Shown piece after piece: positions 36,566 to 52,347 of a DNA stretch of 64,000 bases. A program made the position numbers and the translations under genes. The notes beneath the pieces were generated by a model. It worked only from the letters and a program-made list of their open reading frames with translations, was not told the DNA's origin and did no database searches. The stretch's first letter is position 1. Each line of letters begins with the position of its first letter. The DNA is from a virus. The DNA lies in IMG/VR virus record IMGVR_UViG_3300044691_000355, positions 1-64,000 of that record; one strand, 5' to 3'.

Positions 36566-37660
36566 TTACAGGTTGGAGCGACGAGCGCACACCTCGGGGT
36601 ACACCATCTCGACGCCGCCGATGCGACCGAAGTAGGTCGTGATCTGGCGGATGTCGCGGTACTCAATCGGTGTGCGCTGGAGCGGCACCAACGGCAGACG
36701 CACGCGCGTCGGGTCCTTGATGTAGGCGAACATCGAATTGGTCGCGATGCCGAGCGGGTTGGTCGGCTGCGTCGCGGTGCCCAGGAGCCACTTGCACGGC
36801 AGAATCTGGAACGGCGTTGTGGTCTGACCGACGGCAACGTTATTTTCCAGCAAGTACGTCAGGATCGACTGGCTGCCCGCTGTTGAAATCAGCGTCGAGC
36901 GCAAAATCGAATAGGACACCGGATCAATCAGCAGCCGGTCTGGCATCGCTGCGTAACCGCTCGCGGCCCATGCGCTGTTCAAGATCGCATTGACATCGGC
37001 GAGAATCAGCGCGGCGGTCGCGGACGCCCAGCCGCCCGTCACGGCATTGCCCGTGTTGGTCAAAGCGGCGTGATTCAGAAGACCGTTCATCCTCATGATC
37101 ACATCGCCCGTGTAGGCCTCTTCGTCCAAGTCCATGTTGTACTTGAGCATCATGGCGTCGAACTTCTGCTGATCGATGGGGCGGCCCAACTGCTGCGCGG
37201 AAATCAGTTCCGGCAACGTCCAGGTCAACTGCACCATCCACAGCGGCAACGCAGAAATCTGCTTACCGATGTCCAGCGACACGCCGACAATCGCATTCGC
37301 CTCCTTGCTCGCCCAGGCCTTATTCGAGCCCGCGATTCCCTGCCCGGACGCGAATGAGCTGTTCGTAAAGCTCGATTCCTCATCCCCCATCGTCACGTCT
37401 TCGCGAAGATCGATATCGCGCGCCCACGTGTAGGCGACCAGCGGCATGTGCAGCCGGGGGTCCAAGCGCTCCAGCTCGCTGAGCAAAAACACGCCCGCTG
37501 AATCAATGGTGTTGCGGTCGTAGGTTTGGAATGCATCGCGCGTGCGCGCATGCACACGATGGGTCAGCCGCGTATCAACGCCATGAACGACGTTTAATCC
37601 GTGGCCGTTCGCGCGGGCATTCGCCAGCGCCGTTTTTACGGACTGATTGAGACTTAGCAT
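36566..37660 (-). CDS. Major capsid protein (DUF2184)
   Basis: FL.SELERLD, TW.RDI.LREDV, GRPID.QK, Y.GD, GGVE.VYP. Confidence 0.92.
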   Translation of the reverse strand: MLSLNQSVKTALANARANGHGLNVVHGVDTRLTHRVHARTRDAFQTYDRNTIDSAGVFLLSELERLDPRLHMPLVAYTWARDIDLREDVTMGDEESSFTNSSFASGQGIAGSNKAWASKEANAIVGVSLDIGKQISALPLWMVQLTWTLPELISAQQLGRPIDQQKFDAMMLKYNMDLDEEAYTGDVIMRMNGLLNHAALTNTGNAVTGGWASATAALILADVNAILNSAWAASGYAAMPDRLLIDPVSYSILRSTLISTAGSQSILTYLLENNVAVGQTTTPFQILPCKWLLGTATQPTNPLGIATNSMFAYIKDPTRVRLPLVPLQRTPIEYRDIRQITTYFGRIGGVEMVYPEVCARRSNL

Positions 37661-38304: not shown

Positions 38305-39018
38305 TTAAACGCCGCCGCTGCGCGAGGCCCAGAATTTGCGATTGGTTTCATTCAAGGATGCGGTGGTGACCGCCTTGCCGAAATCCTTGACGGTGAGCTT
38401 GACGTTTGCGCCCGCCTTGTTATTGCGCTCGCGCATCAGCTCGGCGGCTCCAGTGAAGACGCCTGCAACGTTGTCGAGCGTCACTGCATCGATCTTCTCG
38501 CCAAGCAAGAAGGGCTCGATCACCGCTTTGCCGTCGTCGGTCGCATAGGCTGTCTGCACGGCTTTGAGCATCAGGGCTGGCAGCGCATCCTTGGCCTGCG
38601 CACTGTCGCCCGTCGGCACCGCGATACCGGGGCTCAAGATTTCCGCACGCGCGAAAATGTGCTTGGACACTTGCGCCGCATCGGAGGTGCCGAGCACGCC
38701 GACATTGCGGGTACGCGCGGCTTCAAGCGCGGCTGCGGAATCGGTGGCGGCCTTCGCGGCAACGGCGTCCTCGGCTGCCTTTTTCTTCATCGCACAGTCG
38801 GCCGCTTCCTGTTCTTCCTCGGCATCCTTCACCGCCTGGCGCTGCTCATCGACCCACGCGAGCGCGTCCTGGATGCGCTTATCCATGGCTGAGTCTGTCG
38901 TCCCGCCATCGTTGCCGCCCGTGTCATCATCGGCGAGTTCTTTATCGAGTGTTTCCGCGTCGCGCGCATTGAACGCCTGCATGACACGGATGAATTTATC
39001 GGCAAATTTCGATTTCAT
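38305..39018 (-). CDS. Possible nested scaffold protein from an internal start
   Basis: AGGAGA RBS about 10 nt before the in-frame ATG of MKSKFADKF. Confidence 0.5.
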   Translation of the reverse strand: MKSKFADKFIRVMQAFNARDAETLDKELADDDTGGNDGGTTDSAMDKRIQDALAWVDEQRQAVKDAEEEQEAADCAMKKKAAEDAVAAKAATDSAAALEAARTRNVGVLGTSDAAQVSKHIFARAEILSPGIAVPTGDSAQAKDALPALMLKAVQTAYATDDGKAVIEPFLLGEKIDAVTLDNVAGVFTGAAELMRERNNKAGANVKLTVKDFGKAVTTASLNETNRKFWASRSGGV

Positions 39019-39942
39019 GATTGAACGGTCTCCTAACGGTTTATAAATGCGCGATTTCGCCGCGCTGCTGGGTCTGCTCGGTTTCGACTTGCGTTGCAGC
39101 GCTCGATAGGCCGCCATGTGCTCTTTGCTCTTCGCCGTGTGTACGGCGAAGGACTTCTGATTGCCTGCCGCATGCGCGGCGGTTGCGGCTTCGAGGTGCA
39201 GGCCAAGGGCATGCCAATGGGCTTCCTCATCGCCACTCGTTTGCGCCGCTGCACTCGCCGCATGCGCGGCGGCTGAGCGCAGGCTGGTGCCACCGCCGCC
39301 ACCACTCCAGCGCCCGGTCGCATCGCGCTTCTCGGTGGGGTTGAACTGATCCCACACGGAATCCTTGATGGCGCAGCGCGAGCCTGCGCGCCCGCGCCCG
39401 TCGAGTAGCGCCACGTGATTGCCGATGATGTTGTACTGCGTCGCGCGCCCCACGTCGGTCTGCTCATATTCCGCGTCATAGCCGCAGGAAAGTTCCGGGT
39501 GCTTGCGATTCACGAAGGCAATCGCCTCACCGTCGGTGATGATCAGATCGCCCACGAGCGTGTCATCTTCGATGCCGCTGCCACGGCGCACGTTGTGCAC
39601 GGTGCCCACGGAATGTTTCTTCCAACTGCCGGGGGTCACGAATTCGTTCGGATGCTCCAAGGTGACCGGCTTGCCCTCGAAGCTCGACATCGTCTTGTCG
39701 CTGAAAACCTCATCCGCGAGGCGCGTGACGATGATCTCGCCCGCGCCATTGGCATCCAAGGGCAGCTCGGATTTGTGGTAGCGCTGCTCGCCCGTGCGCG
39801 CAATCGCCACCCCCTCGCACACCATGTACCCTTCAGGCGTAAGCCTGCGGCTCTTGCCCACCGCGCCTGGCGCATAGAAAGCGGTTTTGTCGATGACCCC
39901 GACACGGTCGAACACATTGAAGCGCTCGCGCACTTTCTTCAT
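38305..39942 (-). CDS. Head maturation protease/scaffold (DUF2213) with a tagged insertion
   Basis: TPEGY, IARTG, EVF...SFEGKPVT.EHP, ELSCGY, GNHVAL..GRAG.RC.I.D. Confidence 0.9.
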   Translation of the reverse strand: MKKVRERFNVFDRVGVIDKTAFYAPGAVGKSRRLTPEGYMVCEGVAIARTGEQRYHKSELPLDANGAGEIIVTRLADEVFSDKTMSSFEGKPVTLEHPNEFVTPGSWKKHSVGTVHNVRRGSGIEDDTLVGDLIITDGEAIAFVNRKHPELSCGYDAEYEQTDVGRATQYNIIGNHVALLDGRGRAGSRCAIKDSVWDQFNPTEKRDATGRWSGGGGGTSLRSAAAHAASAAAQTSGDEEAHWHALGLHLEAATAAHAAGNQKSFAVHTAKSKEHMAAYRALQRKSKPSRPSSAAKSRIYKPLGDRSIMKSKFADKFIRVMQAFNARDAETLDKELADDDTGGNDGGTTDSAMDKRIQDALAWVDEQRQAVKDAEEEQEAADCAMKKKAAEDAVAAKAATDSAAALEAARTRNVGVLGTSDAAQVSKHIFARAEILSPGIAVPTGDSAQAKDALPALMLKAVQTAYATDDGKAVIEPFLLGEKIDAVTLDNVAGVFTGAAELMRERNNKAGANVKLTVKDFGKAVTTASLNETNRKFWASRSGGV

Positions 39943-40268
39943 GTGTTCGCAATCGAGGGATAGGTGCGCACTGGCAGGATGCCCGACCAGTCCAAGATTT
40001 TTTCTGGGTTGCTCGTGGCGCACGACACGCCGATGGCGTAGTCGTTGTAATCCACGCCAGCCGATACCGGCAGCAGCACTTGTGTGCTGGTGGAGCCGAG
40101 CACGGCGGTGCCCAAGATCAAGCCAGCCCCGTTGGTGTCGGTGCCCCAGATATGATTGAGAACGACCGTCGGCGCGCCGGTCAGGGTTTCCCCAACCAGC
40201 AGCCCCAATGCAAAGTTGAACACCAGTTCAACCGCTTCCAGGGGTGCTTTTTCACTGAATCGCTGCAT
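39939..40268 (-). CDS. Fibre adaptor protein
   Basis: K.P.E...L.FNF...L..GETL pattern; follows the repeat fibre gene. Confidence 0.65.
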   Translation of the reverse strand: MQRFSEKAPLEAVELVFNFALGLLVGETLTGAPTVVLNHIWGTDTNGAGLILGTAVLGSTSTQVLLPVSAGVDYNDYAIGVSCATSNPEKILDWSGILPVRTYPSIANT

Positions 40269-40282
40269 GTCTTAATTCCTTT

Positions 40283-41860
40283 TCAAGGTGATCGCGTCCA
40301 CGTGACTTCACGCGCGGGCGCGCTCATCGCGGCTTCGGCGGGGGGCACGTAGGAGACGGTGAAATTTCGCGCACCGAGCTGTGCCTGCGCCGCCGCCTCA
40401 TACGAAGCGGTGAAATTTCGCGCAGGGATATCGATGACGAAGGGGCCTGGCCCTTGGCTGGTCGCGGTGGTCGATAAGATCGAATGCAGCGTGTCGGGCG
40501 CTTCATGCGCGCCCAAGGCCGCAGCCACGCTCAAGAGACTCTGCGCAATCAGCGCATCCGCCCCTTCCACCACAATCGCATTGGCGGCTTCGAGCAACTG
40601 CGCGAAACTCGTAATCGTATCCGGCGCTTCCGTGCGGGTAAGACTCGCGCCCACGGTGAGCGAGAGCGCGGCGGCGAGCGCATCAGGGCCTTCCGTTTTT
40701 GTCAGCAGCGCCGTGATCGGCACCGCACCTGAAACGGCGATGAGCGTATCTGCGCCTTCGAGAATCGCAGCGTTGATCACTTCGGGCAGCGTTGCCGCAG
40801 CACTGAGTGTGTCGCCGCCTTCGGTCTTCGCGAGGCTGATCGCTTCAGGCAGCGTGGCGGCGGCGCTGATCGTATCGGGCGCTTCGGTGATCGATGCATT
40901 GATCGGCGTGCCGCTCAGACTCGCCGCTGCGCTGATCGTATCGGCGGCCTCGGTCAAGGCCGCATTCAAACTTTCAGGCAGCGTGGCCGCCGCCGCAATC
41001 GAATCAGCACCTTCGGTCAGCGCGCAAGCAATCGCTTCGGGCAGCGTTGCGGCTGCGCTCGACGTGTCGGCCCCTTCGGTCACGCTTAAAGACGCAACCG
41101 ACACGGGCGCGCCTGCCGTTGCGCTTAAGGTATCTGCGCCCTCCGTCACCCCGGCGTTGAGAACCTCGGGCAACGTGACAGCGGATGCGAGCGTGTCCGC
41201 ACCTTCCGTATCGGTGAGCGCCATCGCTTCCGGCAGCGTGGCACTCGCTGCAATCGTGTCCGCACCTTCCGTTCTGCTCAGCGCTACCGCAACCGGCAGC
41301 GTGGCACTTGATGCAACAGTGTCAGCGCCCTCGGTGTCGGTGAGCGTGACGGCAGCGGGCAGCATCACCGCCGCACTCAAGGTGTCGCCGCCCTCGACTA
41401 TCGATGCGCTTACCACCTCGGGCAGCGTCGCGGTCGAGCTGCTGGTGTCTGCGCCTTCCGTCTTTGACAGGCTCACCGCAACCGGCAAGGTCGCGGCGGC
41501 ACTGATTGTGTCGGCACCCTCCGTGACGCCTGCGCTTGCGCCCGCTGGCGCTATTGCGGCTGCGGCAATCGTGTCCGCACCTTCGACAAGAGCGGCGGCA
41601 GCACCGGCTGGCGCGCTCGCGGCCGAACTGATCGAATCAGCACCTTCGGTGATGCTCGCGCTGATCGCTTCGGGGAGCGTCGCCCCCGCGCTTAAGGCAT
41701 CTGCGCCTTCAGTCTTCGCCAAGTTAACCGCAACCGGCAGCGTCGCAGCGGCGCTTGAAGTGTCCGCGCCTTCGGTGGCGGCAAGGGCCGCATTCGTGCC
41801 GCCCGATACGGCAGGCAAGTCCCAGTCGAACCACTTTTGAATGAGAAGATCGAGGCTCAC
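40283..41860 (-). CDS. Repeat fibre protein with about 21 copies of a 21-aa repeat
   Basis: TEGADT.SAAATLP.A.... repeated about 21 times. Confidence 0.8.
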   Translation of the reverse strand: MSLDLLIQKWFDWDLPAVSGGTNAALAATEGADTSSAAATLPVAVNLAKTEGADALSAGATLPEAISASITEGADSISSAASAPAGAAAALVEGADTIAAAAIAPAGASAGVTEGADTISAAATLPVAVSLSKTEGADTSSSTATLPEVVSASIVEGGDTLSAAVMLPAAVTLTDTEGADTVASSATLPVAVALSRTEGADTIAASATLPEAMALTDTEGADTLASAVTLPEVLNAGVTEGADTLSATAGAPVSVASLSVTEGADTSSAAATLPEAIACALTEGADSIAAAATLPESLNAALTEAADTISAAASLSGTPINASITEAPDTISAAATLPEAISLAKTEGGDTLSAAATLPEVINAAILEGADTLIAVSGAVPITALLTKTEGPDALAAALSLTVGASLTRTEAPDTITSFAQLLEAANAIVVEGADALIAQSLLSVAAALGAHEAPDTLHSILSTTATSQGPGPFVIDIPARNFTASYEAAAQAQLGARNFTVSYVPPAEAAMSAPAREVTWTRSP

Positions 41861-41861
41861 G

Positions 41862-42572
41862 CTAGAACCACTCGGCTATGTTCAGCCCCATCGCTAATCC
41901 CCCTTGACGGCCGCGACGTTTCATCGCTCCAGGGGGTGGCTTGCCAGCGACTGCGGCGGACTTGAACGCAACCGTCGCAATGGTCCAAACATCAGATGAG
42001 GCCATCGTGGCCGTGGCGTTTGCGGTGCCCAGCGCTGAGGTCGTGGTCTGACTCATCGCGTAGAAGAAACCGGCGTGCTGGTCGAGGAGGACCGTGAACC
42101 CAGGTCCAGGGGTTATTGCCTCCCCGCTGCTCGGCTGGATGACGGAGAGGATGAGATCAGTGGCATTGGCCAGAGTCCCCATCGCCATCGATATGGCCGT
42201 GGTCGCGCCGACCGTGAGGGCGCTGGCAACAGCGCCAGGGGTGCCGTCCGTGTAGCCACTGGTCGGACAACCGGCCAGCTCATATGCAATTGCCTCACAC
42301 GCGATGCTCGGGTTGATGGTGAACGTGCCGGAGGAAGTCACCACGGGGGCGACAAAAATCCACGAACCATTGTTATTTGCTGTGTCGATGCAGCTAGCAA
42401 CATTCGCGTAGCTGTTTGGGGGCGACTGGTTGTCGGAACACGACTCAGACGGCTGGACGTTGGTCGCCAACACCACAATCAAGTTGCCGACCGTGGGGGC
42501 CGATGGGAACGAGATACCCCCGCCCCCTGCGATAAAACCTGTCTGTTGAACGATGCTCGGTGCGCCGCTCAC
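41862..42572 (-). CDS. Fibre-associated beta-rich protein
   Basis: FPSAPTVGNLIVV..SDNQ..N.Y pattern; Ser/Thr/Gly-rich. Confidence 0.65.
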   Translation of the reverse strand: MSGAPSIVQQTGFIAGGGGISFPSAPTVGNLIVVLATNVQPSESCSDNQSPPNSYANVASCIDTANNNGSWIFVAPVVTSSGTFTINPSIACEAIAYELAGCPTSGYTDGTPGAVASALTVGATTAISMAMGTLANATDLILSVIQPSSGEAITPGPGFTVLLDQHAGFFYAMSQTTTSALGTANATATMASSDVWTIATVAFKSAAVAGKPPPGAMKRRGRQGGLAMGLNIAEWF

Positions 42573-43607
42573 CTAGATGCTCGCGTTAATGCATTCCGCC
42601 GCGACAATCGTGTTCGTGCCCGAGAAGGAGGTTCCGCCGTTGACGGAAACTCCCAAAATAGAACCTGCTGGCGTCGAGTTAAATCCGCTGGATACGGTTG
42701 TTATTAGTCTAATGCCTCCGACATTGACAGGAGTCGATGCGAGACCCGTTACCGCTAGAAAGCTAAGTAGCTTCAAGTTTCCAACCACTACGGCTGAGGT
42801 ACCCGAACCCACCGTGCGGAAATGTAATTCCAATTCAAATTTACCGGTGTCCGCAACAGCGGTGCCTGCGCCGAATGTAAAGGTCAGAATAGCTGTATCG
42901 GCAGTGGTTCCTGCTGTGCCATAACGCACAGTGACAACGAACGCCGCTGTGCCCGCAGCGGTCTTCACCATATCGAATATGAGTCGATACTTAGTCCCCA
43001 CCACAGGGCCGCCCGCACCCAACGCAATCGCCGATCCCGCCAGATATGTGTCGGCGGCAAAGCCCGCGCTGACCGTGGATACAGAACGATTCGACAGGGT
43101 CGCGAGCGCATACTTCACGCCCAATGCGGCCGATGCAGCGGCCATGAGCGAGGTGCCATCTGCGCCAACCGGAATGCGGTCAGGGCCGGTGTCAAAGCCG
43201 ATCAAGTCGCCCTTCGTCGTCAAGGGCAATCCCAGCGTTTCAACCAGGCCCGCAGCGCTGTACTTAGTCCACACGCCCAGCTCATCGAAGATTACTGACT
43301 CACCGGGCAGCAGCGTACCGTTCCACAGGCTTTCCGCCGTTGTGCCGTCGAAATGCTCTACCAGAACCGTGGTTGACACCGTCGCATGCGTGTTGTTGAT
43401 ATCGAGCAGCTTGACGTTGCGCTGCACGCTTGAGCCAGGAGAGCCGACAACCGTCGTCGTGGTGGCAGTCGAGATACTCGCGGTGTTCGTGCGCCCCGGC
43501 GTAATGACCCCGGAGGCATTGTCCATATGCGATTCGTGAACATCGAGCGCCGCCGCCGATCCGGTCGTGACACGGACGATGTCGGAGACCGAGGTAAGCA
43601 GCAGCAT
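42573..43607 (-). CDS. Fibre-associated structural protein
   Basis: TTKGDLI...RIPVGADG..L.A..A..G..Y fibre repeat. Confidence 0.7.
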   Translation of the reverse strand: MLLLTSVSDIVRVTTGSAAALDVHESHMDNASGVITPGRTNTASISTATTTTVVGSPGSSVQRNVKLLDINNTHATVSTTVLVEHFDGTTAESLWNGTLLPGESVIFDELGVWTKYSAAGLVETLGLPLTTKGDLIGFDTGPDRIPVGADGTSLMAAASAALGVKYALATLSNRSVSTVSAGFAADTYLAGSAIALGAGGPVVGTKYRLIFDMVKTAAGTAAFVVTVRYGTAGTTADTAILTFTFGAGTAVADTGKFELELHFRTVGSGTSAVVVGNLKLLSFLAVTGLASTPVNVGGIRLITTVSSGFNSTPAGSILGVSVNGGTSFSGTNTIVAAECINASI

Positions 43608-43615
43608 GAGAGCTT

Positions 43616-43804
43616 TTACGCCTTCGGCGCGAGGGCTGCGGCAGCGTCGTCGTGGGCTTTCTTCTCAACCGCGATCTGCGCGTCGAGTACGATCTTCTCC
43701 ACCGCACTGAGCGCGGCGAGCAGAACGACCGAGTCCTCATCCGTGTGAGTCGCGATAGAGGCGATCCCTTCCGCCACGATCTGAATCTTTTTTGCGATAT
43801 CCAT
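43616..43804 (-). CDS. Small helical protein
   Basis: AAGGA RBS; operon context. Confidence 0.55.
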   Translation of the reverse strand: MDIAKKIQIVAEGIASIATHTDEDSVVLLAALSAVEKIVLDAQIAVEKKAHDDAAAALAPKA

Positions 43805-43816
43805 GGGCTAACTTCC

Positions 43817-44221
43817 TTACGCGTTCGCGGAGGTGAGGGTGAAGGTGTTGACCGTCCAGGCCTGCGCGCTCGCAGCGACCGGATTGTCCATGGTCATATC
43901 CCCACCGCCGCCCGTGGCGGTCACGCTGCCTTGAACGTGGCACGTCGTTCCGGTGCTGTCATAAATACGGAAGTATCCGACCGTTCCCGCAGCGCTAAAT
44001 GTGCCGGTCCATGTGCCCGCTTTCGCCTTCGCGCCAGCAGAGGCATTCGCCAGCCAGTCAGAGGGCAACGCCTGCGAGGCGAGGTTGGTGCCGCTCGCAG
44101 CGGTCGCGCACGTGGCTGGCTCCGCGCCCGTGTAGAACTTGAGCAACGGCGCAGTGCTGATCGTGGTCTCGATTTGATCGAGCTTGGCGTTGAGCACTGT
44201 TTGGCTGTATTGCAGGGCCAT
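43817..44221 (-). CDS. Conserved virion fibre-module protein
   Basis: L..YTG..PA.C..A.SGT.L...LPSDW...GYFRI...QGSV..TGGGGDM. Confidence 0.75.
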   Translation of the reverse strand: MALQYSQTVLNAKLDQIETTISTAPLLKFYTGAEPATCATAASGTNLASQALPSDWLANASAGAKAKAGTWTGTFSAAGTVGYFRIYDSTGTTCHVQGSVTATGGGGDMTMDNPVAASAQAWTVNTFTLTSANA

Positions 44222-44245
44222 GAATACGTTCTCCGGTGAAATTCT

Positions 44246-45079
44246 TTAAACGATGATTTCTGCCCAGCAGCGGCATTCCCAAATGCACCCAGGATGAAAG
44301 CGCATCAGTCGGCCGCTCTCTTCGATCTCGGGCGGGTTGGCCCACTCGCATACGCGGCCGTCCATCGCGCGATGATTCGGGCGAGTCACATGATCTTTGG
44401 TCGCGCGCCAGCGGTAGGTCGGAAGCCCGGCGATGCTCGCGCGTGCTTGGGTCAAATTCGATGCGGTGCGCGACACCTCGGTGCGTGCGATCAGCCGCGC
44501 GTGCGCTGCGCTCACCTCGCCTGAGCGCTCGATCTCGCGCACGATCCTTCCTAATCGCTCGCCCTCGATCAGGCCGGTCAAGGTGAGGCGTTGCACACGC
44601 TGCGCAGCTTCGATGGGCAAGGAGGCAATCAATTCGGTTTGCTCGGCCATGAGTTTGGCCATCACTGCGCCGACTTGCGTGTCACGGATTTCTTGCGCGA
44701 CGCCAGCGGACATGCTCTTGGCCAGCGCGCGCCAGGTTTCGATATCGCGCGCGTTGACTTCCTCGATCATCCTGGCCGATGCTTTTTTGGCCCATGGCCG
44801 AAGCACCTGGCTGTAGGCGTGCAGCACCGAGACCAGCTCTTCGTTACCCGCCCTTTGGGCGGCGGGGAACGCATTGATCAGATGCCCGATGTGTTCACCC
44901 ACCTTGCCGAGCGAACGCTCGAATTCTTCCGTCGCGCGGCCGATCCGTGGCTTGCCTCGCGCTCGCTTCGCGCGCGCATCCATGGCGCGGTGACGCTGCG
45001 CCCGCGAGCCAAGGGAGTACGTTAGGTGGCCGCACGTGAGCAGCGGCACGAATTTCGGTTTCGGTTTCGCCGCGATCAC
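44246..45079 (-). CDS. MuF/SPP1 gp7 minor head protein
   Basis: ARLIARTE, Y.WR..D..TR..H..MDG, HPG.IW.CRC; GTG at 45079 with GTGA overlap. Confidence 0.9.
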   Translation of the reverse strand: MIAAKPKPKFVPLLTCGHLTYSLGSRAQRHRAMDARAKRARGKPRIGRATEEFERSLGKVGEHIGHLINAFPAAQRAGNEELVSVLHAYSQVLRPWAKKASARMIEEVNARDIETWRALAKSMSAGVAQEIRDTQVGAVMAKLMAEQTELIASLPIEAAQRVQRLTLTGLIEGERLGRIVREIERSGEVSAAHARLIARTEVSRTASNLTQARASIAGLPTYRWRATKDHVTRPNHRAMDGRVCEWANPPEIEESGRLMRFHPGCIWECRCWAEIIV

Positions 45080-45258
45080 GGCGTTGTCGGCGGCGTCACC
45101 ACGGCATTGATCAGTGCATCGGCGTACCCGACGCACACTCGCGCAAGGTCTGCGGGATCATTGCGTGCGCCGCGCACGATGGCAGCGGTCAGGAAGACCC
45201 CCGCGAGCGCGAGGCGCAAGACTTGATCGCGATCTTCAAAATCGATGGGCTCACTCAT
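45076..45258 (-). CDS. Small hypothetical protein
   Basis: ATGA/GTGA overlaps on both sides. Confidence 0.6.
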   Translation of the reverse strand: MSEPIDFEDRDQVLRLALAGVFLTAAIVRGARNDPADLARVCVGYADALINAVVTPPTTP

Positions 45259-45389
45259 TCCGTCTCATCCTCGTCTTCGTCGATGGGCTCATCATCAAAC
45301 GGATACTCCATGCCCTCGGGCAGATGCGCTTCGACCGGCTGATAGTCGTTCAAGCGCTTGATGAAATCCTCGGAGACTTTCTCGGTCAT
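45255..45389 (-). CDS. 44-aa highly acidic protein (candidate inhibitor of the upstream ADP-ribosyltransferase)
   Basis: MTEKVSEDFIKRLNDYQPVEAHLPEGMEYPFDDEPIDEDEDETE; ATGA overlaps at both ends. Confidence 0.65.
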   Translation of the reverse strand: MTEKVSEDFIKRLNDYQPVEAHLPEGMEYPFDDEPIDEDEDETE

Positions 45390-47764
45390 AACAGCGCTCC
45401 TTGAGCGGGGGCCTTCACGCGCGGCTTGCGTAGCTTCGGCGGTTGCACCGATGAACTGACCGCCGTGGCATGCACCACGATTCGCGCGAGTTCGCCCTCG
45501 CCTTTCGTGACCTTGGTGATTTTGAAGACCGTGCCCCGTGGCAGCAGCGCTTCGGCCTCGCCGTCGGCGAATGGCACGTCAGTGCCGTTATGCTGATTGG
45601 CCAATTTGCCGAAGGTGGGGATGGATAGGAACTTGAATCCCTTCGGGATGGTGATATGCATCAGCCCGTCTTTACTGAACACGTGCGCCACGCTCTTGGC
45701 GAACGAGGTGGAGCAATACGCGTGATCCATCATCGTGTCACCGACGCCGATGGATTCAACAAGGATGCGGGGAAGGCCGCGCGCGACCAGCAGCTTGCGC
45801 GGCGAGCCCTTCACGGCCTGCATGGCTGTATCGATGCCACGGATGTACGTCTGCATGTAGCTCGACACTGCGTCGAGATTGCCTTGGCTACGACGCAAAT
45901 CATCGTTGATCGAAGAACCTCCGGTGTACTTGACGACCCCGTCGATGATCTCGGGCGTAGGATCTGGCGGCGGCATCTTGAATGCGCGCTCGGCGAGGCG
46001 TGAGGCCTCTGTGCCGCTGCTGCCGCGCATTTTTATCAACATTTCAGGCAACGTCTTCGGATCAACGGGCTCAGGCGGCGCGTTGTTCGCTGCGGATGAC
46101 GCCGCGTAAGCCTGCGCTTCGGCCGTCGAGGCCTTCGTGTATTCCGCTTGCCACGTCGCTTTCTCAGCCCCAGTCATGCTGGTGGAGGCGTACACGGTCG
46201 ATGCCATGTTGGTGAAGGCATCGAGCTTTTCGACGGCGGCGAAGTGTGCGGCCTTGAGTTTGTCCAGCTCCGTTTGCGGCTTCGCCGACATCTTTTGCGC
46301 GAGCTTCTGCTTCTCCAGCGCCGCATTCAGCGCAGCCTCTGCTGCGTTTTCGTTGAACTGCGCTTCACTCACCAGCGCTTTCAGATGCGCGAGCTGCTCG
46401 GGGATGGCAGTCCCTGACGTGAACGCTTGAACGAGCCGCATGACAGCCGCTTCGTTCTCGGCGCGCGCCTCCAGATGCGCCGCCTGCAACTCCTGCAACG
46501 GCGTGAGAGGCGCGGGCGCATTCATCTGATTGACGTAGGTTTGCATCACTGAGCCGAAATGCGCGAGCGTCGCGGGCCCATCGGCCTGCGCGGCGTTCAT
46601 GATCTGAAGGAATTTCTTCGGTGAAGATTTGCCGTACAGGTACAGCTCGTGCACGCCGTATTGCAGATTGCCGACCCACAGCTTGGTCGCCTCGGTCACC
46701 TCGAAATTTTCCTGCACGTGCTTGAGCGAGCCCGCTTCGGCGGAATACGTGAAATCGAGTTTCTGCGCCGCCTGGGTGTCGAGTTGCTCCAACTCCAACA
46801 CCTTATCGGTCTCGGCATCTGCCTTGTACGCGGCTTGAAGCGCCTCTTGAATACGCTTCTTCTCCAGCACCGCTGCCTGATGCAGCGCCGCTTTCTCTTT
46901 CGCATACGCCATCGCGGTGCCTGTCACCGTCGGCGGGAAGAGCTGATTGAAACTGCCTTTGGTCCACTTGCCGGTCGCGTCGCGCTTCTGATCGGGGTCG
47001 AAATGATTCTTCTCATCATCGCGAGTCACACCGATCAATGCGGCGCGGCGCGCAAAGAACGTGCGCGCCAGCGTCGCGGAATTCTTCAAGCCGGAGGCGA
47101 CGAATGCGCCCTCAATGGCATTGCTATCAAGGCCGCGCACGCGCTCAAGCGCCGTATCAAAGGCCTTCGGGTCCAAGCGGCGCAACTGATTGAACACGGC
47201 ACCGGAGGGTAAATGCTCGCGCATCAGGCTCGACTTCTCGCTCACATCGGCGTCGTAGTCCTTATGCTGCCCCTGCGCGCGAAATTCAAACGCGCCGCCC
47301 AGATCGAGCTGCACCAAGTGACCTTGCGCGTCTTGCGCGATGTTCGAGTAATCAATTCCCAGCACGTCCCAGTTTTTGGTGAGCACGGCCGCGTAATACA
47401 TGGTCGCCAAGTCCACGCGCCGCTCAGCGTCGAGGAGCTGCACCGCGCCGGGCCACTTCACGGGCTTCGCCTCAATCCACGGGGAGACCAAGGCCTCCTT
47501 GCCGTGCACGGATTCGACATGCGGCATCGTGGTGCGCACACCCAACTGTCCGACCAGCGCGCTGGCGAGCGCCTCGCTGCGGCCCTGATCGGGGTTTGCG
47601 TAGAATTTGATGTAGTGCTTCTGACCCGCACTCGTGAACACGCCGCCGGGGTTTGAACCTAACTGCGCGCCGCTCTTCGTCCAGCGGCCTTGCGTGTCGC
47701 GCTTCTCAGCAGGATCAAAGCCGTCGTATGCCCTCGCGACGCGCGCATCCCACTGAGCGCTCAC
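45386..47764 (-). CDS. Head-module polyprotein: tag, HipA/PI3K-like kinase, tag, helical region, ADP-ribosyltransferase (VIP2/Alt-like)
   Basis: GSNPGG..YIK..E..NWD....N...LD.GG kinase motifs; Y.G.SSINDDLR, RG, STS, ExE-ALLPRG ART motifs. Confidence 0.85.
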   Translation of the reverse strand: MSAQWDARVARAYDGFDPAEKRDTQGRWTKSGAQLGSNPGGVFTSAGQKHYIKFYANPDQGRSEALASALVGQLGVRTTMPHVESVHGKEALVSPWIEAKPVKWPGAVQLLDAERRVDLATMYYAAVLTKNWDVLGIDYSNIAQDAQGHLVQLDLGGAFEFRAQGQHKDYDADVSEKSSLMREHLPSGAVFNQLRRLDPKAFDTALERVRGLDSNAIEGAFVASGLKNSATLARTFFARRAALIGVTRDDEKNHFDPDQKRDATGKWTKGSFNQLFPPTVTGTAMAYAKEKAALHQAAVLEKKRIQEALQAAYKADAETDKVLELEQLDTQAAQKLDFTYSAEAGSLKHVQENFEVTEATKLWVGNLQYGVHELYLYGKSSPKKFLQIMNAAQADGPATLAHFGSVMQTYVNQMNAPAPLTPLQELQAAHLEARAENEAAVMRLVQAFTSGTAIPEQLAHLKALVSEAQFNENAAEAALNAALEKQKLAQKMSAKPQTELDKLKAAHFAAVEKLDAFTNMASTVYASTSMTGAEKATWQAEYTKASTAEAQAYAASSAANNAPPEPVDPKTLPEMLIKMRGSSGTEASRLAERAFKMPPPDPTPEIIDGVVKYTGGSSINDDLRRSQGNLDAVSSYMQTYIRGIDTAMQAVKGSPRKLLVARGLPRILVESIGVGDTMMDHAYCSTSFAKSVAHVFSKDGLMHITIPKGFKFLSIPTFGKLANQHNGTDVPFADGEAEALLPRGTVFKITKVTKGEGELARIVVHATAVSSSVQPPKLRKPRVKAPAQGALL

Positions 47765-50628
47765 GGCCCAAACATTTCCGCATACACGGAATCGAAATCC
47801 TCATCGCCGTCATCATCGTCATCGCCGGGGTCAACGCTTTGCCAATCTGGCGTCTCGCCCACATAGCCATGCGTCTCTAAGAAATCGGTCATCGCTTGCT
47901 CACTCGTCACGGCTGCATCGGCGGCAAACAGGCGGCCGATCCAGTCCTTGACCTTGGATTTTTTCACTGGGGCTGTTGCACTCCAGGCTTTCCACACCAT
48001 CGGATCGATGTAGGACTTCAAGGCCTGCGCGGGCTTGTTGCCGAGCTTATCGCTGACCTTTTCAGCGATGGCGGCCACAGAGGCCTTGTGCTCTTTCGCA
48101 TCCATCGGCACCGGCATTTTCTTGACCTGCGCGCGCGCCATGTCGGTGGCGACCCATGTGCGCATGTCCTTCAAATCGAATTCTGAAGCCCCAATGCCGT
48201 GGAAGTAATCGCGCACGTGGGTTTCGCTCACCTGGAAAATCTGCTTATTCTCGCCCGTCGCACGCTGGCGTAGGAAGGTCGCGACCTTCGCATCCTTGAC
48301 GATGTGATGCTGCGTAACGCCGCTCTTGCCGGGGAAATCGAACGTGGTCGAATCGCCTGAGACCTTGACGTGCTGGCCTTCCAACTGCGTCGCCCCATGG
48401 GCTTTGACATCCGCGCCCGTGTCCTTTTCGGAGCCGGGACGAAAGCCAGTCTGCGAGACCAAGTACACGACTGCGGCGGCATCCTGTACCGCGCGCGGCA
48501 GCTTCGGATCGTTCATGTCGGCGGCGGCCTTGGCAACCACGCGATCCCGTACCTTATTGAAGGCGACGAGGCGCGAGAATTTCTCCACGTCCTGCTCGCC
48601 GCGATGGCCCGGCAGCTCGCGTGACTGTGAGCGGCCCTTGACATCGCGCCCCGTCACTTGCTTGCCTTCGGTCGGATCGGGATTCAAGCGAATGTCGGTC
48701 CACGCGGGCGGTATTTTCAGCGCCTTCAATCGCGCGTGCTCTTCGGGCGTGCCGCCATGCCACTTCTCATTTGCGCCGTACACGGTGTGCGCTGGCACCA
48801 TCTCGCCCTTGACGAGCTGCGCGGGGATGAGCGTGCCGCCGGAGCGCGTGAACACCTTGCTCGATGTGCTCCAGCGATTCGCAATTGGATTCTTGGACAC
48901 GTAGGACTTTTCAGGCACCGCTGCCTTGCCCTGATTGCCTATCGTCCATTTGCCTTCGGGGTCGCGCTTCTCCTGCGGATTGAACCCGTGGTGCGGCTGA
49001 CCGCCTGACGTGACGTGCTTCAACTTATCGAAGTTCGGGATATTCTCGAAGCGGTCAAAGAAATCCGCGTCGCGGCCTTTCTTGGTCTTCGGCGGCGGCT
49101 TCTTCGCGACCTTGGAGGCCTTGCTCTTCGCGCCCGGCGCTTTGGCAGCGCCTGACTCTGAGCCACGGCCGGGACGCGCGGGCGTCTTGCCCTTTGCGCC
49201 GGGTTTCGCAGCGCCCGGCGGTGCACCGGGGGCGGGCTTCGGCAGCACCAGGCCCAGCGCTTCGGGCGTGGGATCGGGCAGCGACTCGGCGTTTTTGATG
49301 TCCTCATCCGCGATATTCGAGAACGCGCCGGTAATGAGCGACATCGCCTTGAGTTCCTTCAGGCCCGTCGCTTTGTTGATGAGCTGCGCGGAGAAGGCCT
49401 CGGTAACGGCCGCCACCGTGGTGTTGGTGACCTGGGATTTCTCCGTGTCGGACAACTGCCACAGGGATTTGAACTCTAAGGTGAATTCTTTCGGCGGCTC
49501 GGTGCCGAATTTGCTGATGTACGCCAGGCGATACACCGTCTCGATGCCATCACCCAGCCACGTGACTTGCTGCTGCTTCACTGAATCGTGATAGCCGCGA
49601 ATGTCGGCATCCCCGGTCGAGAACCCGGCAGGCGATTGACCGAAGAGGCGCACCAGCGGTATTTCAACGGCCCCCGCCAACTGCTCGCCGAACTGCGACA
49701 GGATCACATCGAGACCGGCAAATGCGTACTGGTGCGTCTCAAAAGTGTCGCGCGTATCCAAGAGGGTGAGGCCCTCATTGGTTTGCATCGCGCGAATCAT
49801 GTTGATGTTGGCGAGCAAGCCTTTCATCGCGGCCGATGTGCCGCCGATGATTTCGCGCAGGCCCTCCACCGACAGCGTGCGCAAATGCGCCTTGTAGACC
49901 ATCTGCGAGATGCCAGCGGTGGCCGAGTCATACGCGATCAGCCGATCCCACATCCGCTCGATCACTGACTGGCCCCACAGGTTCTCACCGATGCGCTGCC
50001 AGTACGGCAGCTCCACGCCCTCGATGCGGATCACGCGCGAGTAGTGGATTTTCATGCGCGGCATGCCGCCCGTGTCGGTGATCGTGTCGTAGAAGCGCGG
50101 TTTGCCGAAGTACGGCCCCATGTCATCGACCAAGTCGGTCAAGGAGGGCTGCAACACCCACCGATCCAGCGGCATCAAACCTTTGAATTGCCCCTGGCGA
50201 ATGCGATCCAATTTCAATGGCGTCGCGGGGTTTTGCCCATCGATCATCATGAAGGCGACAGCGCCGCCATAGAGGCGCGCCCACTTAATCGTGTCGCGCA
50301 GTTGCTTCCACAATTGCAGGCGCGCGATTTCCTTATTGAAGTCCGCGATCTTTGACGGCTTATCGCTCGTGGTGATTTCCATGCCCTCGCGGGTCATGTC
50401 CTGCGCGTAGACATCGACCACGCGACCGGCGATCCAAGAGCCCCGGTACACCATCTCCATCTGCATGCGGTTGCGCGAGATGGGATTAAACCCATACGCG
50501 CCGCCATCGCCCTGATTGCCCGTGCCGCGCCCCACGTGCGCAAGAAAATTCTGAAAAGTATCGTGAGTTTGGGCGGCCTCCGCGTCTGCGAACTTCTTGA
50601 CCAGTCGCGGACTGCGCCGATTGCTCAT
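47761..50628 (-). CDS. Portal protein (DUF1073-type) fused to DNA topoisomerase IB and an acidic tail
   Basis: YRGSWIA..VVD..A.DMTR, W.RLYGG, IHYSR, IP..RLFGQSPAG (portal); IPPAW, GRD.KGR.Q, GFRPG, F.GKSG, KD.RT..A, LGN....KSYIDP (TopIB). Confidence 0.9.
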   Translation of the reverse strand: MSNRRSPRLVKKFADAEAAQTHDTFQNFLAHVGRGTGNQGDGGAYGFNPISRNRMQMEMVYRGSWIAGRVVDVYAQDMTREGMEITTSDKPSKIADFNKEIARLQLWKQLRDTIKWARLYGGAVAFMMIDGQNPATPLKLDRIRQGQFKGLMPLDRWVLQPSLTDLVDDMGPYFGKPRFYDTITDTGGMPRMKIHYSRVIRIEGVELPYWQRIGENLWGQSVIERMWDRLIAYDSATAGISQMVYKAHLRTLSVEGLREIIGGTSAAMKGLLANINMIRAMQTNEGLTLLDTRDTFETHQYAFAGLDVILSQFGEQLAGAVEIPLVRLFGQSPAGFSTGDADIRGYHDSVKQQQVTWLGDGIETVYRLAYISKFGTEPPKEFTLEFKSLWQLSDTEKSQVTNTTVAAVTEAFSAQLINKATGLKELKAMSLITGAFSNIADEDIKNAESLPDPTPEALGLVLPKPAPGAPPGAAKPGAKGKTPARPGRGSESGAAKAPGAKSKASKVAKKPPPKTKKGRDADFFDRFENIPNFDKLKHVTSGGQPHHGFNPQEKRDPEGKWTIGNQGKAAVPEKSYVSKNPIANRWSTSSKVFTRSGGTLIPAQLVKGEMVPAHTVYGANEKWHGGTPEEHARLKALKIPPAWTDIRLNPDPTEGKQVTGRDVKGRSQSRELPGHRGEQDVEKFSRLVAFNKVRDRVVAKAAADMNDPKLPRAVQDAAAVVYLVSQTGFRPGSEKDTGADVKAHGATQLEGQHVKVSGDSTTFDFPGKSGVTQHHIVKDAKVATFLRQRATGENKQIFQVSETHVRDYFHGIGASEFDLKDMRTWVATDMARAQVKKMPVPMDAKEHKASVAAIAEKVSDKLGNKPAQALKSYIDPMVWKAWSATAPVKKSKVKDWIGRLFAADAAVTSEQAMTDFLETHGYVGETPDWQSVDPGDDDDDGDEDFDSVYAEMFGP

Positions 50629-50908: not shown

Positions 50909-51004
50909 CTACTTGATGATGTCGCCAGCCAGGCGCTTGCAGCGCATACAGATCGCTTTCAAGGGGCTGCGCTTATGGCCGAAGAAAAAGCAAAGAATGT
51001 TCAT
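50909..51004 (-). CDS. 31-aa Cys/His peptide (DUF1660-like)
   Basis: LCFFFGHK...CMRC; ATGA overlap with terL. Confidence 0.55.
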   Translation of the reverse strand: MNILCFFFGHKRSPLKAICMRCKRLAGDIIK

Positions 51005-52347
51005 TCGCCCAACTTCTCCCACTGCGCACCGACGCCGCGCCTTTGGATGTAGCCATCGAGCCCGTAGCGAACCGCGTCCCATCCATGGTTGTGTGCATCG
51101 ACGATGATGGGCAACACATCGCCCGTGATCCGGTCCACCTTGTAAGCGTACAGACGCGCCTCTTCCTGCATGTGCTTGCAGCGCTCGTGAATATGGATGC
51201 GGACGAAGCCTTTTAAATGCGCAACGCCGTCCTCTAACGACCCCGGCCATTTATCGGCGGCCGAAATGTTGAAGGACTTGCGCGCCATGTAGGAAATCGT
51301 CTCAGGGCGCGCGCAGTCGGCCCTGATCGGCCAGGCCCTTGAGCCGGGCACGGAGTCAAACAATTGCGGGGTCTCATCGATCTCCACGCGGTAGCCGAAG
51401 GCCTCGTGACTGATCCACAACTCCTGACTGTGATCAGGATTCTCAGTGACCCAGAAACGAATGAGCGCGGTAGGATCATTTGCAAAACCCCAGTCTGCGC
51501 CGTAAAAAATGCGGGTGTCTTCATGGGGATTGCCAAAGGATTCTACGAGGACCCGACGGCGGAACACCGCCGCATTGGAATTCTTTTGAAGCTTGCCTTC
51601 CCAGACGTGATCGTAATCGGCCTGTAACTGGGAGCGCTCATCATCATCGGTAGCCTCGGCGATGCGCCGCCAGTCATTCTCGCGCTCGGCCTTCAGCTCA
51701 TCGGGGAACCATGGATTGTCGTTCCAGTTCACCTCGACGCTGCGCATGTCCGGGCGCGTCGCGAGCACGAAGCGCTCGTACGTCGGGTCCGTCTCATCGC
51801 GCGGGTTGAACACCACCCAGATTTCGGATGAGCCCAACTTGGTGCGAATGGTGGGAATCAAATATTTCCAGGACGCATCGGAGACGCGCTCCGCTTCCTC
51901 GACCAGGCAGATATCAATCGCTTCGAGCGACTTGATCTTGAGCGGGTCCGTCTTGATCCCCGCGAAAATAAACTCGGTGCCGTTGACCCCAAAGATGGCC
52001 TGCGCCTGAATCTCGTAGAAGCGCGTGAGGCCCATCTGTTCGATGCGATCCGTGATCAGTTTGTAGATCGAATCGCGAATCGAGGTCTGGTACTCGCGCG
52101 CGCAGAGGATGCGCAGCCGGTGCTGCGTGCCCAACACGGCGCATAGGCCTGCAAAGCTCCAGCTCTTCCCCGATCCGCGCCCCCCGTAGGCCACCTTGTA
52201 GCGGCTCGGAATAAACACGGGCATGCCGCCGGGGCCCGGCCTGAAAAAGAGGTCCCGCAGTTTTGGCGGGAGAAAATCGTTAGTGGGTGAGTTGCGGCTC
52301 GGGGTCCTCATCCGTTGCTTCGGGTTTCTCAGCGGCTCCGGGTTCAT
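51001..52347 (-). CDS. terL: Terminase large subunit (PBSX-type); start uncertain
   Basis: GGRGSGKS Walker A, LVEEAE Walker B, FNP, GADWGFANDP, NH..DAVRY. Confidence 0.95.
   Translation of the reverse strand: MNPEPLRNPKQRMRTPSRNSPTNDFLPPKLRDLFFRPGPGGMPVFIPSRYKVAYGGRGSGKSWSFAGLCAVLGTQHRLRILCAREYQTSIRDSIYKLITDRIEQMGLTRFYEIQAQAIFGVNGTEFIFAGIKTDPLKIKSLEAIDICLVEEAERVSDASWKYLIPTIRTKLGSSEIWVVFNPRDETDPTYERFVLATRPDMRSVEVNWNDNPWFPDELKAERENDWRRIAEATDDDERSQLQADYDHVWEGKLQKNSNAAVFRRRVLVESFGNPHEDTRIFYGADWGFANDPTALIRFWVTENPDHSQELWISHEAFGYRVEIDETPQLFDSVPGSRAWPIRADCARPETISYMARKSFNISAADKWPGSLEDGVAHLKGFVRIHIHERCKHMQEEARLYAYKVDRITGDVLPIIVDAHNHGWDAVRYGLDGYIQRRGVGAQWEKLGE

Follow-up and report, generated by a model that had tools for sequence, protein, structure and literature searches.

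The stretch analyzed here, called the window throughout, comprises the first 64 kb (64,000 nucleotides) of the 132,772-base virus record IMGVR_UViG_3300044691_000355, whose completeness is estimated at 96%. Pfam and PHROG matches placed a head module on its minus strand at 36.5-52.3 kb, in which a portal fused to a type IB topoisomerase (TopIB), a 792-residue protein with kinase-like and ADP-ribosyltransferase (ART) domains, and a DUF2213 head maturation protease share a 14-residue peptide, hereafter the tag. A six-frame scan of the window with the pattern F[DN]P.[EQ]KRD..G[RK]W[TS] revealed exactly four matches, all on the minus strand, confirming the four copies that an earlier sequence-only reading of this DNA had reported at the same positions. 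The tag is real and widespread; the phage proteins that carry it belong to a known class, in which it has apparently not been described. The copies and the genes and domains that carry them are as follows.

47761 to 50628, minus strand: portal-TopIB fusion, 955 amino acids (Pfam PF06381 at 3.2e-103, PF01028 at 1.3e-20, PF21338 at 5e-08)
49402 to 50463, minus strand: portal domain, residues 56-409 (PF06381)
48943 to 48984, minus strand: tag copy 1, FNPQEKRDPEGKWT, portal residues 548-561 (pattern match)
48025 to 48747, minus strand: TopIB part of the portal gene, residues 628-868 (Pfam; PDB 2f4q at 2e-22)
45386 to 47764, minus strand: two-enzyme cargo protein, 792 amino acids
47678 to 47719, minus strand: tag copy 2, FDPAEKRDTQGRWT, residues 16-29 of the 792-residue protein, kinase-like domain directly after
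47015 to 47677, minus strand: kinase-like domain of the 792-residue protein, residues ~30-250 (fold search)
46961 to 47002, minus strand: tag copy 3, FDPDQKRDATGKWT, residues 255-268 of the 792-residue protein, joint of the kinase-like and helical+ART parts
Residues ~270-600 of the 792-residue protein, minus strand: helical region
45464 to 45937, minus strand: R-S-ExE ART of the 792-residue protein, residues 610-767 (PF03496)
38305 to 40023, minus strand: DUF2213 protease, tag, three-helix insert, and scaffold in an open reading frame (ORF) of 572 amino acids (PF09979 at 4.5e-46; PHROG head maturation protease)
From 39942, minus strand: called product of the protease-scaffold gene, 545 amino acids
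39358 to 39849, minus strand: DUF2213 protease domain, residues 59-222
39304 to 39345, minus strand: tag copy 4, FNPTEKRDATGRWS, then GGGGG, residues 227-240 of the 572-residue ORF
39085 to 39291, minus strand: insert helices of the protease gene (AlphaFold model)
39016 to 39018, minus strand: Met336, from which the scaffold part of the protease gene runs

When back-translated, the pattern occurred four times in the window, compared with an average of 0.00 over 100 dinucleotide-preserving shuffles, and four times in the whole record, where the reversed control gave 0; a looser pattern (PxQ/ExRDxxG[RK..][WF..]) detected no copy beyond these four in the whole record. At the DNA level, the four copies have 25-30 of 42 bases in common, with only 5-9 of 14 third positions, and their 60-base flanks have 13-24 of 60 bases in common. 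Because the third positions differ and the flanks are unrelated, this comparison shows that the tag is conserved and selected as a peptide rather than being the product of a recent DNA duplication. Copy 1 follows a Pro/Ala/Lys-rich linker, with the TopIB N-terminal domain starting 67 residues after it, and copy 4 begins 5 residues past RCAIKD, where the conserved part of the protease domain ends. Under both the strict and the loose pattern, the tag was absent from the capsid protein and the stand-alone MuF protein of the window.

The modules behind the tags were examined with family and structure searches. The TopIB assignment of the portal extension was based on matches to Topoisom_I (1.3e-20; 74.2 bits versus a cut-off of 23.7) and Top1B_N_bact (5e-08; 33 bits versus a cut-off of 27), and its C-terminal region matched PDB 2f4q at 2e-22; the sequence LKSY near the C-terminus fits the SxxY tyrosine motif of TopIB enzymes. 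The ART matched ADPrib_exo_Tox (PF03496) at 1.6e-11 (44.3 bits versus a cut-off of 23.4), and its Arg, Ser-Thr-Ser, and Glu-x-Glu motifs were recognized in VARGLP (starting at residue 660), STSF (685), and EAEAL (736). Pfam, PDB, and motif evidence therefore agree with the TopIB and the ART that the sequence-only reading had placed behind tags. The kinase that it had placed behind copy 2 held at the level of the fold and not at that of the sequence family. No match to this region was found in Pfam or PDB sequence searches; its AlphaFold model (residues 1-275; predicted template modeling score 0.77) retrieved atypical kinases as the best Foldseek matches, namely CtkA (9.7e-06; template modeling scores of 0.50-0.53), PI4K, HipA, LepB, and actin-fragmin kinase, among 54 matches at E<=0.001. 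A Gly-rich loop (GSNxGG), K53, E64, NWD, N141, and DxGG were invariant in 11 of 11 kinase-like sequences, and the protein atlas also pointed to a kinase. The region is thus supported as a putative kinase, an identity carried by its predicted fold only. The His/Ala-rich insert described behind copy 4 is indeed present, and modeling refined it to a three-helix unit (predicted local distance difference test, pLDDT, >90) followed by a scaffold domain, with no enzyme. Within this gene (39016-39048, minus strand), the scaffold domain begins at an in-frame ATG (Met336) that has a Shine-Dalgarno-like AGGAG 11 bases 5' of it, and Met336 is kept in 7 of 7 tag-bearing protease homologues, which suggests a nested scaffold gene expressed by internal initiation at this codon. 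In phage lambda, the C/Nu3 pair is such a case, a nested scaffold gene read from an internal start.

The relation of the tag to carrier and cargo was clearest in MuF proteins. Among 120 listed relatives of one MuF-tag-ART protein, 15 carried a match to the tag pattern, and 16 of the relatives were aligned. In all 12 aligned MuF-ART proteins, the tag or a near variant stood directly after the conserved end of MuF, and it was absent from all four aligned relatives with another C-terminal part or none; similarity among the MuF proteins stopped just upstream of the tag, and in the MuF-ART proteins Gly-Gly and then a linker of very variable length separated the tag from the ART. Since the tag was found in 12 of 12 MuF-ART proteins and 0 of 4 others, with the homology break upstream of it, the alignment shows it to be part of the cargo cassette and not of the carrier. 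The kinase-ART cargo is fused to a portal in a metagenomic protein of 1171 amino acids (P0273; portal, ParB-like domain with DGHHR, tag, kinase-like domain, ART) and free-standing in the window phage and in P0274, and in all three proteins a tag precedes the kinase-like domain, with different spacing. Of the 120 DUF2213 proteins listed, seven are tagged, each time immediately behind the protease domain, and in these seven it is the best-conserved stretch of a variable insert. The MuF alignment, the sample of cargo domains described below, and the genome contexts agree in this respect, upholding the earlier view of a portable element ahead of interchangeable non-structural modules. One further protein, P0129, has the order tag, ParB-like domain, tag, unknown region. 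MuF-only relatives of about 340 amino acids (P0294-P0297 and similar) contain, at the position that the tag occupies in MuF-ART relatives, ...YEPFVDPDxEFEVTKWP..., one residue shorter, which looks like a degenerate or related form of the tag.

The strict DNA pattern matched 32 IMG/VR stretches, in which tagged proteins reached up to 1996 residues. Here the tag stood between MuF and ART (L010, L037), ahead of DUF7178 (L012, L019), ahead of a PBECR3 nuclease (L025), and upstream of a 2H-like domain (L007), and three of nine scanned tag-bearing ORFs had no Pfam match. A tag profile built from 29 instances was searched against 1.84 billion representative proteins, yielding 2108 matches at E<=1e-3, 312 at E<=1e-10, and 10 at E<=1e-30. 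Most of them are giant proteins with several tags, spaced at about the length of a domain. The best 150 of the 2108 contained 553 tag copies by pattern match (1-10 per protein), with a median spacing of 241 amino acids (interquartile range, 181-314); the first copy lay within 60 amino acids of the N-terminus in 85 of the 150, and the distance from the last copy to the C-terminus had a minimum of 34 and a median of 320 amino acids. A local re-scan with the hidden Markov model gave 583 matches, in which R (1.00), D (0.97), G (1.00), and W (0.98) were nearly invariant, followed by Q/E (0.96), R/K (0.88), and T/S (0.85), with weaker conservation of F (0.60), D/N (0.75), P (0.79), and the Gly-Gly tail. 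The consensus is accordingly a core of [QE]-x-R-D-x-x-G-[RK]-W-[TS], usually with [FY]-[DN]-P before it and Gly-Gly plus a variable linker after it. A Pfam scan of every fourth of the best 150 proteins (n=38) found MuF (8), DUF7178 (8), ADPrib_exo_Tox (5), and ART-PolyVal (3), along with GNATs, DUF3626, His_Phos_1, Zeta_toxin, InPase, Acb1, HD_4, and PI3_PI4_kinase. The question raised with the sequence-only reading, whether a proteome-wide motif search would return head-module genes and interchangeable enzymes, was answered in its favor within the proteins sampled and the contigs examined: interchangeable enzymes follow the tag, and the genes are head-module genes. One profile match of another kind was P0073 (622 amino acids, metagenomic; profile score 1.7e-18), an unrelated NHL-type beta-propeller with a signal peptide, the blades of which contain IQKRDAQGNWSVIA, resembling the tag core.

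Cultured phages were searched as well. A tblastn search with a 34-residue tag segment gave chance matches only (E 6-10). No tag was present in the examined regions of phages Jeremy and fHe-Yen8-01, in the matched regions of Lilbeanie, phiAsp2, CRP-738, and GX15bay, or in the first 12 kb of the Magia and IFTN9 records, which is their head-module part. As no cultured tagged phage was found, no proteomic data on a tagged protein were found either.

Genomic context was assessed in 17 longer tag-bearing contigs, 10 of which were at least 90% complete. The loose pattern gave 35 matches in 18 records and 0 in the reversed controls. The tags of one genome clustered within a few kilobases on one strand, near MuF where a MuF match exists, and 10 ORFs adjoining tag genes, taken mostly from contigs with no Pfam MuF match, comprised three portals, two large terminases, two head maturation proteases, one tape measure protein, and two unmatched ORFs. 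Among the 17 contigs, MuF was found in nine, DUF2213 in one, Peptidase_S78 in one, and ClpP in none, and the capsid and portal families of the window in one each; in the reverse direction, a true tag was present in one of the best 80 IMG/VR loci with a DUF2213 protease. Judged by gene content, the tag is shown to be a head-module feature in the contigs examined, independent of the portal, capsid, or protease family.

AlphaFold models were obtained for the protease-scaffold protein (120-row alignment) and for residues 1-275 of the 792-residue protein. Copy 4 had a pLDDT of 52-54 and no contacts, with the protease domain and the insert above 90, and copies 2 and 3 had values of 43-62 and 42-48 next to flanking domains above 90. 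These models therefore predict the tag to be a short linear motif that lies in disordered sequence and is undocked in its own proteins. The tag profile matched no solved structure (best E 3.3); the look-alike in the P0073 propeller suggests, by analogy, that the core can form a hairpin around a D-x-x-G turn. Three other functions were considered and set aside. Self-cleavage at [DN]-P as a general mechanism was rejected given the frequencies of F, D/N, and P in the 583 matches and the lack of an invariant nucleophile; tag-to-tag pairing of carrier and cargo was judged unlikely, with a single copy in 5 of 11 near-complete genomes, as was DNA binding, the consensus being acidic.

Placed N-terminally to add-on modules in phage proteins that are built into the head, the four peptides all represent one portable and widespread "module header", and that it heads cargo cassettes in such head-delivered proteins is shown by the data above. 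We propose that it is a release or handling header of effector proteins that is read by some factor, and we assign this reading a probability of about 0.5. In the window phage, the header marks the joints between portal and TopIB, between the leader and the kinase-like domain, between the kinase-like and the helical+ART parts, and between the protease and its insert and scaffold. The factor would read the tag, probably as a small beta-hairpin, at the places where modules separate from the carrier or from each other; separation could occur in the head or after ejection, and each enzyme would then act alone. The reader would not specifically be the DUF2213 protease. Release or handling is favored because it fits every placement of the tag, including fusion joints, joints between modules, and a leader before the first module.

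Several observations weigh against this reading. Cleavage is shown nowhere, and no phage or host protease is linked to the tag. Tag phages have different or unrecognized prohead proteases (families searched: DUF2213, S78, and ClpP), so a shared cleavage specificity would be surprising. In 5 of the 12 aligned MuF-ART proteins, G, N, or A stands in place of the tag Asp. In the protease gene of the window, the tag precedes a helical spacer and a scaffold and no enzyme, and a separate scaffold made from the internal start may render a cut at this tag less needed. A single unique copy occurs in 5 of 11 near-complete tag-bearing genomes, and in L037 (919-10229) two untagged ART proteins (439 and 1708 amino acids) lie beside the MuF-tag-ART gene; hence, the tag is not obligatory for head cargo. 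Since P0073, one of four fully inspected matches, is an unrelated propeller, the 2108 profile matches include false positives, and the genomic context covers the 17 contigs and 10 neighboring ORFs.

Alternatively, the tag could be a docking peptide that loads the modules by binding, while the procapsid assembles, to the inner face of the capsid or to another head component (portal, MuF, or scaffold). It would then resemble the capsid targeting sequence of T4, the N-terminal signal of P1 DarB, or the cargo-loading peptides of encapsulins. The position of the first copy near the N-terminus in 85 of the best 150 proteins would suit this function, as would the 792-residue protein, which has tags and no carrier domain, and multiple copies in one protein could add avidity; N-terminal packaging signals are, moreover, established in T4 and P1, according to the available passages of PMC9024508. 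Docking is nevertheless less favored, because it would be redundant in the portal, MuF, and protease-scaffold fusions, which keep the tag and are built into the head anyway, and because it would need a conserved receptor, which is hard to picture when no portal, capsid, or MuF family is common to the tag contigs (1, 1, and 9 of 17). The tags are also undocked on their own proteins in the AlphaFold models, and on balance we consider docking unlikely. The tag could also be read after delivery by a conserved host factor (protease, chaperone, or localization partner), or help each module to pass through the portal and tail channel. The independence from head lineage points to a reader common to many systems, and disorder is what would be expected of a motif bound by another protein. 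With no candidate reader known and no solved structure matched by the tag profile, we regard such a role after delivery as rather improbable. At the other extreme, the tag might have no recognition role and form a structural hinge or cap, or be what a recombination joint for swapping cassettes leaves behind at the protein level. The break in similarity among MuF variants just upstream of the tag, and gene fusion and fission at the tag site as well, are in keeping with this idea, which is nonetheless scarcely credible when four residues are 97-100% invariant ahead of unrelated folds, codons vary freely, even in an AT-rich genome, and variable-length linkers part the tag from the next domain, so that it does not cap that domain.

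The sequence-only reading had favored a different mechanism, in which the DUF2213 protease cuts after Asp sites that precede each tag and the freed tag-cargo modules dock in the head and leave with the DNA. The protease gene itself is tagged at its protease/scaffold joint, and at the corresponding joint head proteases of other viruses, such as herpesvirus assemblin, cut themselves. An H, an S, and a further H never vary among 120 DUF2213 sequences, as would fit a serine protease. However, the proposed Asp sites lie 1, 6, 6, and ~30 residues upstream of the tags, in proteins where an Asp occurs within 7 residues upstream at 28-42% of positions and within 31 residues at 73-88%, and 29 aligned tags showed no conserved upstream Asp column; the sites are thus at chance frequency and unevenly spaced, and neither the Asp sites nor a protease cutting after them is supported. 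The proposed tie to this particular protease found no support either, with DUF2213 in one of the 17 tag contigs and the tag in 7 of 120 listed DUF2213 proteins and one of the 80 best loci. Relatives with the same head module (Magia and IFTN9, first 12 kb) are untagged, and the capsid protein, in which the same site would be expected of a substrate of the protease, has no tag in its gene. When residues 28-196 of the called product, which cover the DUF2213 protease domain, were co-folded with the tag, the score was 0.12 against a mark of 0.32 in a run with no controls, an outcome that speaks neither for nor against binding. The specific Asp/DUF2213 cleavage mechanism is unsupported, and the model as a whole is very unlikely.

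The module header of our preferred reading has counterparts, and differences from them, in several known systems. VENN in CdiA and the DPxGL-type motif at the end of the Rhs core mark the joint between a carrier and its swappable toxins and coincide with recombination breakpoints. These motifs have other sequences and belong to secretion systems, and the Rhs motif lies within an autoprotease fold, whereas the tag is disordered and has no catalytic set. Encapsulin cargo-loading peptides are short, disordered, and load enzymes into an HK97-fold shell; they are usually C-terminal and serve one cognate shell. Unlike them, the tag is N-terminal to its modules and independent of the capsid family. 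The T4 capsid targeting sequence and the P1 DarB signal are, like the tag, short peptides at the front of a cargo protein; they steer their cargo into the head, and the T4 head protease gp21 removes the former. In the available passages of PMC9024508, these signals are phage-specific, N-terminal only, and devoid of a common consensus. The tag, by contrast, is also internal (three of the four window copies), occurs up to 10 times per protein, and spans unrelated head genes.

Polyvalent proteins (Iyer, Burroughs, Anand, de Souza, and Aravind 2017, PMC5512222; PMC9503650) are, in the passages available, encoded in head modules and predicted to be packaged and injected, and, as in the window, they unite unrelated enzymes (ART, atypical kinase, GNAT, 2H, PBECR) in one chain or fuse them to MuF, the portal, or the capsid-processing peptidase. 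The tagged genes of the window lie inside the head morphogenesis module, and they combine a portal with TopIB and a kinase-like domain with an ART, two unrelated enzyme domains in one chain. A giant protein of Yersinia phage fHe-Yen8-01 with the same kinase-like module is annotated "phage particle associated". The available passages credit the processing of polyvalent proteins to embedded zincin-like peptidases (PMC5512222), whereas the window proteins are without a Pfam peptidase domain, no peptidase family being matched in the portal and the 792-residue protein at E<=0.01. The passages of PMC5512222 and PMC9503650 mention no short peptide between modules, although the motif might be present in the alignments of the supplements. 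Topoisomerase appears a single time in the main text of PMC5512222, as far as available, and that is in the reference list. In the MuF polymorphic toxins (Jamet et al. 2017, PMC5576092; Bxa, PMC11699363), as described in the available text, a carrier encoded in the head module bears a C-terminal toxin that varies and is often an ART. The relatives L010 and L037 have precisely this build, as MuF-tag-ART, whereas the MuF of the window stands alone (296 amino acids). The main text of PMC5576092, as far as available, and the passages of PMC11699363 gave no sign of the tag. A full-text literature search for spellings of the motif (RDxxGRW and similar) returned no paper, although supplementary alignments could contain it.

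Phages are known to carry enzymes in their heads and to inject them. Beyond T4 and P1, how fused head modules are recognized, separated, and delivered is not understood, and the four near-invariant residues of the tag offer a handle for testing the processing of polyvalent proteins. The tag could also serve as a sequence marker for injected effectors in metagenomes, where the cargo sample contains an anti-CBASS Acb1 domain, ARTs, kinases, and acetyltransferases, and as a possible portable label for loading proteins into phage particles. In the window phage, the tag also suggests that a type IB topoisomerase is carried on the portal within the virion, and no such enzyme is among the polyvalent domains in the passages available. 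A broader proposition, which we hold tentatively and with the odds against it, is that the tag acts as a universal signal on the proteins that phages deliver, independent of head lineage, whose reader is common to many tailed phages or hosts and releases or sends the modules. If so, it would be a capsid analogue of secretion signals, a tagged protein could be called an injected effector from sequence alone, and foreign proteins could be loaded into and delivered by many phages through about 20 added residues.

The head module of the window runs in the order large terminase, portal-TopIB, 792-residue protein, MuF, five genes, DUF2213 protease-scaffold, small virion protein, and capsid; the tag-free members located by Pfam are the following.

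51001 to 52347, minus strand: large terminase, start of the head module (Pfam)
44246 to 45136, minus strand: stand-alone MuF (head morphogenesis), 296 amino acids, no tag and no fused toxin (PF04233 at 5.4e-17)
36566 to 37660, minus strand: major capsid protein, PF09950, without tag

The 792-residue gene starts with GTG in a 4-base overlap (GTGA) with the portal stop. Burkholderia phage Magia and Bordetella phage IFTN9, the nearest cultured phages, share the core order of head genes and have no TopIB extension, no 792-residue gene, and no protease insert; their portals align only to window portal residues up to ~460. The portal-TopIB protein ends in a strongly acidic C-terminal tail, ...DPGDDDDDGDEDFDSVYAEMFGP (47764-47850, minus strand). 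Five genes lie between MuF and the protease (39939-44221, minus strand), a place where Magia has none. One of these encodes a Thr/Ala/Gly-rich protein of 525 amino acids (40283-41860) with repeats of ~20 residues such as TEGADTxSxAATLPEA; its gene has a 63-base period (TRF) and falls in PHROG 38872, function unknown. A PHROG 3758 virion structural protein is encoded at 43817-44221, also between MuF and the protease.

Among the other genomes, L037 additionally carries a methyltransferase and an ADP-ribosylglycohydrolase-like gene, the latter of which may be an immunity gene. In L028 (2970-5282), a 771-residue "head maturation protease" with an RNA-ligase-like middle module is untagged and adjoins a tagged gene. 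Pseudomonas phage Jeremy (L005, 7090-10731) and Yersinia phage fHe-Yen8-01 (L006, 4360-10800), phages of ~90 kb, encode giant "ADP-ribosyltransferase" proteins with the kinase-like module of the window, and neither giant protein contains the RDxxGRW tag. A different peptide of ~20 residues, ...G-x-x-G-M-L-V-F-K-D-G-H-W-x-K, occurs once in the giant protein of Jeremy and three times in that of fHe-Yen8-01, with a weaker form near the N-terminus of each, and may represent a second family of module headers.

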